In this document: piece by piece, positions 43,857-62,399 of the stretch
Numbering within the stretch: position 1 is the stretch's first letter
Layout of the letters: each line of letters opens with the position of its first letter
IMG/VR virus record: IMGVR_UViG_3300047313_000015
Coordinates: 1-64,000 of that record
Direction: 5' to 3' (one strand)
Length of the DNA: 64,000 nt
From: a virus
Lineage: Duplodnaviria; Caudoviricetes
Translations under genes and position numbers: made by a program
Notes under the pieces: model-generated
What the model saw: the letters and a program-made list of their open reading frames with translations, nothing else
What the model was told of the DNA's origin: nothing
Database searches by the model: none

Positions 43857-44405
43857 CTACGTGCCGTAGTGGTTATCGAGGATGAATTTCTCCCAATCGG
43901 CCGGAGTGACATGCCGGTAATCCCTCGGTGACGGGCACGGCAGATTAGCCCGGTCATACCCGTATGCGGCCAGTGAGCTGCACACGATATGGCCGGGCAG
44001 TTTGCCGTCCACCTTCTCATGCCAGATATCCGCCAGCCCGAATTTACGGGAGAATATCTGCCCGCCATCCTCAGCTATAGCAGCCCAATCGTAGGCCGTA
44101 CCTATCATCGCTTCCATGATGACGGCAATGGACATTCTGGCCTCATCGGTAATCGCCTGGCTTGTGTTGGCAACGGTCAGCGGGTGAGCGATGTATTTGG
44201 CGCAGTCCACCCATCCAACACCCCCTGGGCGGCCCTCTATGCCCCACAGAACGCCGTTGGGCGCGATGTGGTGGACTACTGCCACATGATGCGCTGCGGG
44301 CTCACCGTCGAATACAGCGCCGATCTCGATCGACTCAGCGACGACAGAGGATCCTCCGCAGATCACCAGAATGCTGGCGGGTTTGAGGTCTTTGGTGTTG
44401 ATCAT
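43857..44405 (-). CDS. permuted papain-like amidase (YaeF/YiiX, C92-like)
   Basis: HVAV...IEG, IGTAYDW, VCSSL, TPAD; AAGGAG RBS. Confidence 0.7.
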   Translation of the reverse strand: MINTKDLKPASILVICGGSSVVAESIEIGAVFDGEPAAHHVAVVHHIAPNGVLWGIEGRPGGVGWVDCAKYIAHPLTVANTSQAITDEARMSIAVIMEAMIGTAYDWAAIAEDGGQIFSRKFGLADIWHEKVDGKLPGHIVCSSLAAYGYDRANLPCPSPRDYRHVTPADWEKFILDNHYGT

Positions 44406-45079
44406 GGTTTTACTCCCTTGCGGATATTGCATCCCAGATGGGCCGCTTGCACATTATCCCAGACATGCCCACCACCCCTGGACATGGCAATAATGTGATC
44501 AATGGAACCGTATCCCGGATCCGGGTATTTGACATCTCTCCTGATCACGGGAAAGTCACAGCCAAGCTGACATAGCCAATTGTCACGGTCTAGGACATCC
44601 TCTCTAGTGATAGATCGATCGAACGGGACACCAAAGCGTTTGGCACGGGCACGGTGGTTTTTGGGAAGTGGAATGTAGTCTGCCCATTTGATCCGATTGG
44701 CTTCACCCGCGCCGCGAGACGCCCTTTTCTGGGCGCATGGACGGCTGCATGTCATAGCTTGGTTCCGTTTTGCCATGAATATTTCGCCGCATTCGGGACA
44801 GATTTTCTCGTATTTGGCTATTTCATGATCATGACGCCATGTATTCCGGCAGATTCGAGAACAAAACCGTCCTACAGGGTTTCCTCGGGTGTAAACCGAC
44901 CCGCACCGGTCACAATTTCTAGTTTGGGGTCCTCTGTAACCTTTCCGGATTCGCTCTTGTTCTTGCCGTGCTGTTTTTCGGCATACGTCCGAGCAATATC
45001 GGGTCGGGCGACCCGCTGATGCAATGACCTGCTGAAACTCTGCTTCGCAGTAGCCGCAGATCAATACCTTTATCTTCAT
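44402..45079 (-). CDS. HNH endonuclease with Zn-ribbon repeats
   Basis: RDNWLCQL, IDHII...GG.H...N.Q.AH..CN..K. Confidence 0.88.
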   Translation of the reverse strand: MKIKVLICGYCEAEFQQVIASAGRPTRYCSDVCRKTARQEQERIRKGYRGPQTRNCDRCGSVYTRGNPVGRFCSRICRNTWRHDHEIAKYEKICPECGEIFMAKRNQAMTCSRPCAQKRASRGAGEANRIKWADYIPLPKNHRARAKRFGVPFDRSITREDVLDRDNWLCQLGCDFPVIRRDVKYPDPGYGSIDHIIAMSRGGGHVWDNVQAAHLGCNIRKGVKP

Positions 45080-51798: not shown

Positions 51799-52269
51799 AT
51801 GAGAGACATCGATCACTACCGGCAATGGAACCGGGCATTCGATAGTGCCCGCGCCGCTGCGGCGGAAACTCTCGCCAATGACAGTGCGCTGGTCCTGCGA
51901 TCAATACACGCCGGGCTCCAGAGTCATCTGTCGGAGAACCCGAACGACGCTCGCTCGCTGGGCTTGTGCGCCGGTATCACTGACGTGCTGGATCAGAGAG
52001 TGCAGCAATTCGAGCCGGAAGGGCCACAGGAGCCGGAGCGTGTTTACTACGTTCAGGTGAAAGCCAGCCCGCGAAGTCACACGCTCACTTACAAGGGCCC
52101 TTTTTTCATCCCGGTGGGGAGTACGGTAACGCTCCCGCCACTTCCGTGGATGAACCACGAATGGACCGCCGAGGTTATCGGCACCGATAAGGGTGAGGGG
52201 TACAACGGCGAGGGGTACAACGGCGATATCAAGTCCGTTCTTTCCGCTACCTTCAAGCAGCGGAACTAG
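51799..52269 (+). CDS. hypothetical protein
   Basis: GAGGGG RBS. Confidence 0.65.
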   Translation: MRDIDHYRQWNRAFDSARAAAAETLANDSALVLRSIHAGLQSHLSENPNDARSLGLCAGITDVLDQRVQQFEPEGPQEPERVYYVQVKASPRSHTLTYKGPFFIPVGSTVTLPPLPWMNHEWTAEVIGTDKGEGYNGEGYNGDIKSVLSATFKQRN

Positions 52270-52275
52270 TTCGTA

Positions 52276-52448
52276 AGGCACGTTACAGATACCACGTCCG
52301 TGTCCGGGGCTTGGGGATAGTGCCAGCACGCTACGCGACTGGCACGGTTACCGGTACGTAGTTGCCGGTAACTGATTCACCTGGGAGGTTTCGCAATGCC
52401 AGGCCATTAGGTGCCTGGTAAACAGCGGCCGGTAATGTGGGAGTGCCT
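52276..52448 (+). ncRNA. candidate multibranched structured RNA
   Basis: closing AGGCAC/GTGCCT plus at least three internal hairpins. Confidence 0.5.
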
Positions 52449-52485
52449 GTTCTCGATAATTCAGCAAACGGAAGGAATGTGGAAA

Positions 52486-52611
52486 ATGACACACCCAATC
52501 GTCACAATTGACAGTTTCAACCGTACGTGGGTCGGCGGCCGATTGCTGACTGCGGATGAGGCCCGGCGTTACTGGCTGGACCGGGACGCCGACCGCGCGA
52601 AACTACGCTAG
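52486..52611 (+). CDS. small hypothetical protein (41 aa)
   Basis: GGAAGG RBS. Confidence 0.5.
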   Translation: MTHPIVTIDSFNRTWVGGRLLTADEARRYWLDRDADRAKLR

Positions 52612-52658
52612 GAGAGAGTGTCAGGGGGTGCCGGTACACTGGTGCTGGCACCCTTCAC

Positions 52659-52737
52659 GGGACTGGGCGGTATCGACGGATAAGGAAAACCGCACGCGGA
52701 CCTTATCCGGACCTGGGTTCGATTCCCAGCAGTTCCA
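52659..52737 (+). ncRNA. mini-tmRNA: tRNA-like domain only, no mRNA-like domain
   Basis: GGGACTG/CAGTTCC-A with G3.U70; D-loop GGTATCGAC; P2 CGGATAAGG/CCTTATCCG; GAC linker; T arm CTGGG-TTCGATT-CCCAG. Confidence 0.8.
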
Positions 52738-52752
52738 CGTAATTGCATAAAG

Positions 52753-53015
52753 TGTGTGCCCTGTTGAGGGTGTGCGTGCGGGCTAGCGAAAGCTAGCGGG
52801 GCCAGAAGCAAGCGCAAGACGCCTGGTCGCGCCGGATTTATCCGGCCCATGGTGGGGAGAAGCCCGAAAGGGCCTAATCGCATGTAAAGGCTGCATGCAG
52901 ATCCTTTGGCAACGTCAATAAGACCATAGGTACGACGGGTTGGCCGGATTTGTGTGGCGGTAAGGTCTACTGCCCTGTCCCACGTGCCGCACGTACAACC
53001 CCATCGGGGCACACG
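52753..53015 (+). ncRNA. candidate ~260-nt structured ncRNA
   Basis: long closing stem, two GAAA tetraloop hairpins, no credible ORF. Confidence 0.6.
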
Positions 53016-53040
53016 TAAACCAATGAGAGAAGGAAACGGC

Positions 53041-53463
53041 ATGACCATTATAGAGATACGGGCTCAGCTAGACGCTCAGATCGCCGAGCCGGTTAACATC
53101 AGGGGCATGACCCGTGACCAGCGCCGGGCGGATATGGACCGCTGGCTGGCGGACTGCCTGGCACAGAGCGAGCGGCTGGATGAGGAGCATTTGCTCCTCG
53201 GGATCGGCCGTACTGCTGCGGTTAACATGACGCACGAACTCATCTGGGAATGGCAGTATGCCACATCCTCCAGGTGGTTCCTGGCTCTTCCTGAGCGTTA
53301 CATGACTCCCGATAGTATGTCTCGCCCGGACTGGGATCACAGCCACTACCCCCACGACGAGCACGGGAACATTGGCCGGGTTGCCACTCTTCAGCGCCCA
53401 GAGACCGCCGAGGATCGACGCGCTGCGGAGATGGTCCGCGCTGCGCTTGCAAGTAACGACTAA
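53041..53463 (+). CDS. hypothetical protein
   Basis: GAAGGA RBS. Confidence 0.65.
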   Translation: MTIIEIRAQLDAQIAEPVNIRGMTRDQRRADMDRWLADCLAQSERLDEEHLLLGIGRTAAVNMTHELIWEWQYATSSRWFLALPERYMTPDSMSRPDWDHSHYPHDEHGNIGRVATLQRPETAEDRRAAEMVRAALASND

Positions 53464-54457: not shown

Positions 54458-54488
54458 AGGGCCGCCCCGAGAGGGGCGGCCCTTTTTT
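54458..54488 (+). terminator. intrinsic terminator ending the early cassette
   Basis: GGGCCGCCCC-GAGA-GGGGCGGCCC-TTTTTT. Confidence 0.9.
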
Positions 54489-54629
54489 ACTGTCTGAAAC
54501 TAGTTGCTGATCGGCAAGCAAGGATCGCGGCCCTGAGAGCCCCTGTAAGCCCCGTAAATTCTGGACCCACCCGATCACCCCACCCCGGTGCCTTCAGGCC
54601 GTCTCCGTGGATCTGGGGGCCGGGAAGAG

Positions 54630-54975
54630 CTATCTGTGTCGTCTGCGCCAGGCTGAGTTGCACTTGAAAGTGAGCCGGGGCCAGATTACCTAGATCATTC
54701 CCACCCCCAAGGCGTTTGGGCACCAGATGCTCGGCAGTGATCATCTCTTCCAGCCCGAACGGCTGGCCGCAGATCACGCACGGGCGGCCGGTCTCCCTGG
54801 TATGCCTGACCATGGCACGGCGATTCTGGTCATACTCCGCGTCATACCCGCGAGCCTGCCGGGACGGACGGTTAGCCGGTTGCCTCCGCTGCTGTGGCGG
54901 GCGCAATGCCAGGCACGTATCGCACATCGAGGCCCGTACCGGCGTGCCACATACGAAACATGGCCGCTTAAGCAT
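54630..54975 (-). CDS. packaging-associated HNH endonuclease, split by a +1 frameshift
   Basis: RPC..CG, RGYDAEY, C..CG, EH...GG...NL.PAH; final CN lies in the +1 frame after CAC TTT C (54667-54669). Confidence 0.75.
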
Positions 54976-62190: not shown

Positions 62191-62292
62191 CTACAAGTCG
62201 CCAGCGGCCAGCTCAAGCCCGCGCAGCCACCATGGAGAGCCTTCGGGGTTCTCGTCCATCAGTTCCCAGCCTCGCTCTTTCCATGCTTCCAT
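62191..62292 (-). CDS. small protein (33 aa)
   Basis: GGGAGG RBS; MEAWKERGWELMDENPEGSPWWLRG. Confidence 0.45.
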   Translation of the reverse strand: MEAWKERGWELMDENPEGSPWWLRGLELAAGDL

Positions 62293-62310
62293 GCTTGCCT
62301 CCCTCTTACG

Positions 62311-62399
62311 TGGACCTGGCGGGATTCGAACCCGCGAGCACCACAGCGTTCAGGCGAGGGGTCTCGCTTCACCGCTGACGACTAGTCGGTTTCAGGCCC
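62311..62399 (-). ncRNA. Ala-identity, anticodon-less tRNA/tmRNA-TLD-like RNA
   Basis: GGGCCTG/CAGGTCC-A (G3.U70), T arm GCGGG-TTCGAAT-CCCGC, long hairpin in place of the anticodon arm. Confidence 0.7.

Follow-up and report, generated by a model that had tools for sequence, protein, structure and literature searches.

Trans-translation is the main ribosome-rescue pathway of bacteria and an antibiotic target, and we wondered what a phage might do with a transfer-messenger RNA (tmRNA) that consists of its tRNA-like domain (TLD) only. The gene that raises this question lies on the plus strand at 52659-52737 of the window, which is the whole stretch of 64,000 nucleotides that was analysed and corresponds to the first 64 kb of the 97,339-bp IMG/VR virus record IMGVR_UViG_3300047313_000015 (estimated to be 87% complete). 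The letters of this 79-nt element match the description given in an earlier, sequence-only reading, in which it was taken for the TLD of a tmRNA with the whole mRNA-like domain (MLD) missing. The Rfam tmRNA model RF00023, a covariance model of our own (R1) and covariation among relatives all bore this out, and the element is almost certainly a TLD-only, tag-less tmRNA gene of the type carried by phage DS6A.

When the window was scanned with the Rfam models (cmscan), RF00023 matched at 52659-52740 with 56.1 bits (gathering score 47, E 2.5e-19), and the run on the whole record gave the same result. The match extended over model positions 1-374. As the sequence-only reading had expected of such a search, the 5' and 3' ends of the model were matched and ∼294 internal positions were missing; in the cmscan alignment this deletion sits exactly between the two strands of helix P2b. 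The best member of the Rfam clan at the locus was tmRNA, not tRNA, and ARAGORN, which called 9 tRNAs in the window, made no call at 52659-52737. R1, which was built from the window element and 26 viral sequences in the same register with DS6A left out, scored the window element at 90.4 bits. Since the minimum free energy fold of the single sequence (z = -2.5) recovered the acceptor stem and P2 but mispaired the T arm, the support for the full structure comes from the covariance models and from covariation, not from thermodynamics.

In this structure, all parts of which are on the plus strand, the 5' strand of the acceptor stem (GGGACUG, 52659-52665) forms seven out of seven pairs with 52730-52736, and G3 (52661) is paired to U70 (52734). 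The 3' strand CAGUUCC and the discriminator A73 (52737) together occupy 52730-52737; CCA is not encoded, and A73 is followed by CGU. Between the two acceptor strands lie, in order, a stemless D-loop with GG and UCGA (52666-52676, aligned to the RF00023 consensus), the 5' strand of helix P2a (52677-52685), a cap (52686-52700), the 3' strand of P2a (52701-52709, 9 bp with the 5' strand), a GAC junction (52710-52712) that belongs to the conserved GGAC of the RF00023 alignment, and a T arm (52713-52729) with the 5-bp stem CUGGG/CCCAG and the tmRNA-type loop UUCGAUU. Nucleotides U17, G19 and A334 of E. coli tmRNA are contacted by SmpB (PMC8363625). By alignment, the D-loop of the window element holds the equivalents of U17 and G19, and the A of its junction is that of A334, the nucleotide in the SmpB Trp pocket.

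The components of an MLD, namely a resume codon, a tag open reading frame (ORF) and an in-frame stop codon, were not found in the window element. Pseudoknots PK1-PK4 were absent as well, as were the D stem, anticodon arm and anticodon of a canonical tRNA. Only 15 nt between the P2a strands take the place of PK1, the tag ORF and PK2-PK4. The sequence-only reading had given this length for the cap, and the length stands, but the cap is not an arbitrary loop: by the RF00023 alignment it keeps the internal loop between P2a and P2b (AAAA, 52686-52689) and a P2b stub of 3 bp (52690-52692 / 52697-52699), which is closed by the tetraloop CACG and followed by a single A (52700).

This closure bears on the idea that the element is the acceptor piece of a two-piece tmRNA whose tag-encoding partner lies elsewhere in the genome, since a tetraloop closes P2 and leaves no free strand with which a coding piece could pair. 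Permuted-tmRNA models did give weak matches at 62208-62335(-) (20.7-21.7 bits) and 52703-52792(+) (16.3 bits), but these scores are far below the cut-offs of 47-84 bits (RF04321, RF01850 and relatives), and a small ORF that has a strong Shine-Dalgarno sequence overlaps the former match, which was taken as chance. A separate piece supplying a tag ORF had been named beforehand as the finding that would speak against an MLD-less tmRNA; none was present in the 97-kb record (the estimated 87% of the genome), which held no other tmRNA-family match above threshold. No tag-like peptide was seen in or near the element, two of whose three frames lack a stop codon. We regard a two-piece arrangement as scarcely credible.

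Known RNAs of similar design

The sequence-only reading knew of no such form in a phage early cassette, and its premise of novelty is wrong. Hudson, Lau & Williams 2014 list 'Mycobacterium phage DS6A (TLD only)' (PMC4131195), a form described as 'little more than the TLD' (PMC4131195; PMC11915505), and by R1 it is homologous to the window element. Although DS6A had no part in building R1, the model found its element at JN698994 28478-28557 with 61.1 bits; there the gene is unannotated in GenBank and falls below the Rfam gathering score. The two RNAs (tmID 11587 / Phage__Mycobacterium.9 in the case of DS6A) are alike in their length of ∼80 nt and in the order of their parts, from an acceptor stem with G3.U70 and A73 through a stemless D-loop, P2a, an A-rich loop and a 3-bp P2b stub with its tetraloop to the T arm, and the cap motif GAAAACCGCACGCGG is identical in both. 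They differ in the junction, which is GCAC in DS6A and GGAC in the window element, and in the T stem. Their carriers differ too: DS6A, which is temperate, has 60 kb and infects the M. tuberculosis complex, possesses no tRNA genes and bears the RNA gene between gp33 and a DNA polymerase III beta-like gene, whereas the window phage has at least 97 kb, no integrase and ∼29 tRNA genes. The window element is of a kind already known and is not a new kind of element, and the window by itself brings a modest gain, namely one more member, in an uncultured soil phage, of the kind published for DS6A.

Full-length phage tmRNAs, such as gene 190 of Starbow (tag ANSNVASAYALAA) and those of the mycobacteriophage Bxz1 group, are borne without a phage SmpB, as is the window element, and have the same TLD, with a GGGG.. 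acceptor strand including the G.U pair, the D-loop GGUUUCGAC, a GGAC junction and a T arm. However, the resume codon, tag ORF and stop codon are retained in them along with the pseudoknot region (279 nt in Starbow), all of which the window element lacks. Since larger Streptomyces phages such as Starbow have full-length tagged tmRNAs, phages of one host genus carry either form.

MLD-less tmRNAs are also found in organelles, in the mitochondria of jakobids and oomycetes (RF02544) and in plastids of Mallomonadaceae, the 2025 tmRNA database paper having added plastid forms of ∼65 nt without a coding sequence (CDS) as well as tag-less mitochondrial forms (PMC11915505). Like the window element, they have a TLD without a tag frame and rely on an SmpB encoded elsewhere. 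They arose by separate reduction, in a different lineage and setting, and the window element does not belong to their family; RF02544 matched nowhere in the record at E <= 1. Nearly the design of the window element was engineered in a laboratory TLD construct, in which the 5' 25 nt and the 3' 34 nt of T. thermophilus tmRNA were joined by UUCG, again a tetraloop on P2 (PDB 2CZJ; PMC3985003). Constructs of this sort, which have served in SmpB co-crystals and in assays of the early steps, are bound by SmpB and resemble a tRNA's upper half (PMC3985003). The window element is maintained by evolution, not engineered, and differs from them in its longer P2a, its internal loop and P2b stub, and its constrained arm length. 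The phage's own tRNA-Ala (record 69374-69446, -) shares G3.U70, A73 and the T arm with the mini-tmRNA, which, unlike that tRNA, has no D stem, anticodon arm or anticodon.

Relatives in phage genomes

A megablast comparison of the 3.5-kb region with phages gave no match, and at lower stringency the element itself was the only part of these 3.5 kb that resembled any GenBank phage DNA. Homologues were present in the ∼114-kb Streptomyces phages GiJojo, pSt2308 and LuckySocke, with partial ones in Alone3 and BRock. In the first three the element is part of a tRNA array, in which tRNA-Val and tRNA-Ser adjoin it on either side and on the same strand. Two of these three records leave it unannotated, and that of GiJojo has the hypothetical protein gp44 instead. 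The gp44 CDS (PP725410 17023-17265, equal to L008:2499-2741) begins atop the mini-tmRNA, which R1 places at L008:2501-2578 with 91 bits, and is most likely a mis-annotated RNA gene. In LuckySocke, two unannotated stretches that flank the mini-tmRNA (L010:2366-2500 and ∼2620-2722) have good T-arm sequences, as well as a tRNA-like 5' part in which a long insertion stands at the place of the anticodon loop; the array may hold additional non-canonical tRNA-like genes here. When the window element was aligned with its counterparts in the Streptomyces phages, conservation in this four-way alignment started at G1 and stopped at CCAC, which gives the gene sharp edges. Pair 4:69 covaries (A-U, U-A, G-C), P2a is variable but compensated, and the cap is invariant.

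To sample the family more broadly, a degenerate pattern (TCGAC, 18-48 nt, GGAC, T arm) was run on viral contigs, at least 119 of which it matched. An ∼80-nt RF00023 match above the gathering score was obtained at 13 of the first 15 loci. Features that the pattern left unconstrained recurred among the matches listed: 100-105 of the viral ones close a perfect 7-bp acceptor stem 8-19 nt upstream, G3.U70 is present in 106/109 and A73 in 109/109, and the arm from TCGAC to GGAC clusters at 28-31 nt though 18-48 nt were allowed. CCA is encoded in 28 of these 109. R1 gave 89 matches at E < 1e-6 in 100 viral sources, and ARAGORN called only two of 100 family members. The family is common in phages yet unannotated, and it is invisible to ARAGORN; annotation pipelines for phages under-report the element, which is missing from GenBank records or, as in the case of gp44, called a protein gene. 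In a full-text literature search under several names, no paper describing a wide phage distribution of TLD-only RNA was found.

As a control, the same pattern was run on one genome per bacterial and archaeal species. Among the matches listed, a closed mini-TLD was found in 100 of 119 viral matches versus 1 of 122 bacterial-genome matches, and R1 scores were at most 42 bits in the bacterial genomes versus 50-96 bits in the viral contigs. The closed mini form is phage-specific in the samples examined. On these same figures the bacterial-genome matches were ruled out as instances of the element; our guess is that they are ordinary tmRNA 3' ends with a chance TCGAC.

Covariation was assessed in an alignment of 75 distinct rows taken from the R1 matches. 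Standard pairs filled 96.7% of the cells, compared with 39-53% when the partners were slid by 1-3 columns, double-sided changes occurred in 16 of 22 pairs, and the covariation score was 0.66 versus 0.05-0.08 for the slid controls; these values are to be read with the caveats that the sample is defined by a pattern and drawn from the matches listed, that the alignment is fitted to the model and that relatedness makes the sequences non-independent. Within the family, covariation is seen at acceptor pairs 4-7, six of the seven modelled P2a pairs show double compensatory changes, and in the T stem the two outer pairs covary. 

Other positions are conserved. The pair G3.U70 is G.U in 74 of the 75 rows and never G-C or A-U, A73 is present in all 75, and G1-C72 and G2-C71 are kept. 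The same holds for the GG of the D-loop (71/75), for three A's of the A-rich internal loop (51-65 of ∼70 sequences) and for the P2b stub, none of which is forced by the pattern. Because these unforced features are conserved, they indicate selection for an RNA that alanyl-tRNA synthetase (AlaRS) can recognise and for a putative SmpB-binding elbow. The AlaRS identity elements that the sequence-only reading had pointed out are intact in the window element itself and kept across the family.

Conservation of this kind is difficult to reconcile with a non-functional remnant, be it a full-length phage tmRNA that has decayed or a piece of a host ssrA gene of the attP type. It is true that phages integrating into ssrA carry the 3' part of that gene, and that the full-length tagged tmRNAs of the larger Streptomyces phages would provide a source for decay. 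Yet the element has the two TLD halves in a precise junction, every helix is preserved by compensatory changes over the 75 sequences, and no integrase was found in the record or among 121 flanking ORFs of the other loci. The mini form is, moreover, nearly absent from bacterial genomes (the single case among the 122 matches listed). DS6A integrates at tRNA-Lys, not at ssrA (PMC10865867), and since its attB is that tRNA gene, its element is not an attP. We consider a remnant very improbable, and this reading, its attP variant and the two-piece reading are essentially excluded.

The genomic surroundings of the family proved diverse. No tRNA gene was present in the fetched flanks of 78 of 100 loci; one lay within 150 nt at 17 of the 100, in every case on the same strand. 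Among the 121 nearest flanking ORFs, a Pfam survey revealed neither an integrase nor SmpB, nor any one partner that recurs. At a subset of loci the element is located in the head module, with the prohead protease upstream in 5, the major capsid gene downstream in 6-8, the portal gene in 3 and the terminase gene in 3, and there it is embedded in long late operons, not in tRNA arrays or early regions.

Positions between prohead protease and major capsid, or beside portal or terminase, in long late operons would suit a tRNA-like processing or decoy module outside trans-translation, that is, a punctuation site for RNase P and RNase Z in polycistronic transcripts, or a decoy for a host enzyme or defence nuclease (e.g. 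RNase R). The two further anticodon-less tRNA-like genes of the window phage, described below, would also fit such a module. Fragments of tRNA or tmRNA have been found to bind RNase R and to join a phage anti-CRISPR complex (AcrIIIA1; PMC11662646), which is a weak lead, as it concerns host fragments and not a phage-encoded TLD. A module of this kind would have no need, as far as RNase P and RNase Z are concerned, of G3.U70, A73, the tmRNA-type D-loop, the GGAC junction and the P2 module, all of which are conserved, and the 78 loci without a nearby tRNA and the lack of a recurring neighbouring gene family do not favour it either. We judge it to be improbable.

Possible roles in infection

What the RNA might do for the phage can be considered on this basis. 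The reading that we favour, and to which we give roughly even credence, is that the window element is an alanine-chargeable, SmpB-binding competitor of host tmRNA that would block ssrA tagging. Its transcript would be trimmed like a tRNA, with RNase P acting at the 5' end and host enzymes processing the 3' end and adding CCA to it, and the host AlaRS would charge it with alanine via G3.U70 and A73. Host SmpB would be bound through the elbow of D-loop and T-loop. With no resume codon, tag ORF or stop codon, trans-translation could not be completed, and the RNA would be a rival of host tmRNA in binding SmpB, and probably in occupying EF-Tu and the empty A site of stalled ribosomes as well. The expected outcome in infection would be less ssrA tagging and less proteolysis of tagged products. 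Neither SmpB, a CCA-adding enzyme, peptidyl-tRNA hydrolase (Pth) nor a tyrosine integrase was found in the 97-kb record; since the first three are lacking there, the RNA must use host factors.

We place the competitor reading at this level because it is the sole one with any experimental support, which is heterologous and comes by way of citing papers. According to these, a TLD-like molecule, whether chargeable or not, strongly inhibited E. coli tmRNA, perhaps by titrating SmpB (PMC4131195, PMC11915505, citing Mao et al. 2009). Several points weigh on the other side. As the same papers have it, the inhibition experiment was done in E. coli and with a 'similar molecule'. A pure SmpB sponge, moreover, fails to explain the near-absolute conservation of G3.U70 and A73, given that inhibition was reported irrespective of charging; this conservation, together with the constrained arm length, suggests from the sequences that the RNA has to be charged and to enter the ribosome. 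The benefit that a phage would draw from blocked ribosome rescue is not evident. The pattern-defined sample and model-fitted alignment tilt the pair counts towards structure. Finally, a sigma-70 promoter scan of 52000-53300 detected none, and there was no RNA run among the public runs that contain the element.

The main rival, possible but distinctly less probable, is tag-free rescue or a block at the level of the ribosome. In tag-free rescue the alanylated mini-tmRNA, with host SmpB and EF-Tu, would enter ribosomes stalled on truncated mRNAs and accept the nascent chain. The exit would be by drop-off of peptidyl-Ala-RNA and hydrolysis by Pth, by an Arf-type release factor, or by further rounds, and phage proteins would escape the degradation tag. 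Truncated mRNAs would be abundant when phage or defence nucleases cut mRNA. The strongly kept AlaRS identity set fits this role well, as it is needed for ribosome entry and not for SmpB sponging, and the narrow range of arm lengths and the retained module of P2a, loop and P2b are what one would expect of an RNA fitting a confined site. There is precedent as well: the MLD-less tmRNAs of jakobid and oomycete mitochondria persist alongside an SmpB that is imported, and a helping role in dealing with incomplete mRNAs is ascribed to them (PMC11915505, PMC3985003), and in a published model the steps up to peptidyl transfer require only the TLD and SmpB (PMC3985003). However, canonical release is impossible without a stop codon, neither Pth nor another release factor was found in the phage record, and the E. 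coli experiment, as cited in PMC4131195, showed inhibition, not rescue. Competitor and rescue RNA are not distinguished by the present data and could be facets of one activity. They are the two functions that the sequence-only reading had put forward, as decoy inhibitor and tag-less rescue, and also the two discussed in the literature.

A broader proposal, which we offer tentatively and think rather unlikely, would be that TLD-only RNAs are alanine-charged effectors that enter stalled ribosomes, with the fixed-length arm of P2a, A-rich loop and P2b as a docking module, and append Ala, once or repeatedly, with no tag being templated. In this manner the phage would reprogramme rescue, towards either tag-free recycling or a dead-end block from which it profits, and the window element would be one of three anticodon-less RNAs in this phage that retool translation quality control.

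A widespread family of ∼80-nt RNAs that most likely antagonises or re-routes trans-translation would show that phages manipulate this pathway routinely, and would supply natural inhibitors of, and probes for, SmpB, AlaRS and EF-Tu. Most worth experiment are the family-wide picture and the conserved features that a sponge model leaves unexplained.

The phage and the locus

The public runs containing the record are soil and rhizosphere metagenomes, and DNA contigs from four of them, one of which is probably the source sample, are identical over the element. The minus strand bears the genes for terminase, portal, prohead protease and major capsid at 33-40 kb; genes for DNA polymerase and ribonucleotide reductase are located at 1.5-8.5 kb. 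The terminase is nearest to those of phages of Actinobacteria (38-46% identity) and points weakly to an actinobacterium as the probable host; host assignment from an antirestriction/primase-like protein was uninformative.

The element itself is part of a plus-strand, rightward block of small genes (∼47.6-54.5 kb) that includes a protein of the 'antirestriction / primase' family, and an early or host-takeover role of this block is plausible from its gene content. Pfam searches with nine neighbouring ORFs gave only an HNH endonuclease and a weak RuvA_C match. HNH endonuclease genes at 44402-45079(-) and 54487-54975(-) (PHROG, Pfam) flank the block; they may be homing endonucleases that mark the borders of a module. 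Immediately upstream of the element, a GC-rich 9-bp hairpin without a T-run (52626-52653, +) follows the stop codon of a small ORF (52411-52611) and ends 5 nt before the gene. The terminator scan of 52000-53300 gave nothing relevant and did not call this hairpin, which is possibly a terminator or processing structure of the upstream ORF and whose belonging to the element is uncertain. On the other side, the 216-nt non-coding stretch 52738-52953 has no significant fold (z = -1.4) and no tag-like ORF.

The ∼29 tRNA genes, a normal tRNA-Ala(UGC) among them, are all on the minus strand at 61-72 kb, and with them lie the two further anticodon-less tRNA-like genes. One of these, at 62311-62399(-), follows a tRNA-Met by 3 nt and has an acceptor stem GGGCCUG/CAGGUCC-A with G3.U70 and A73, a perfect T arm, and a 3' end like that of full-length Streptomyces phage tmRNAs. 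Its body differs from that of the mini-tmRNA: it lacks the GG..UCGAC D-loop and has a long hairpin that is interrupted by a symmetric internal loop. It scores 23-32 bits with RF00023, below the cut-off, and 27 bits with R1. The other, at record 69234-69314(-), lies ∼60 nt downstream of tRNA-Ala(UGC) and has a TLD-like topology, with acceptor stem, GG loop, 7-bp P2-like helix and T arm, and a wobble pair G2.U71 instead of G3.U70; R1 gave it 25 bits, and neither ARAGORN nor Rfam called it. At record 69801-69874(-), beside tRNA-His, ARAGORN predicted a suppressor-type tRNA with anticodon UUA (reading UAA), which was not among the tRNAs that Rfam gave at the gathering score.

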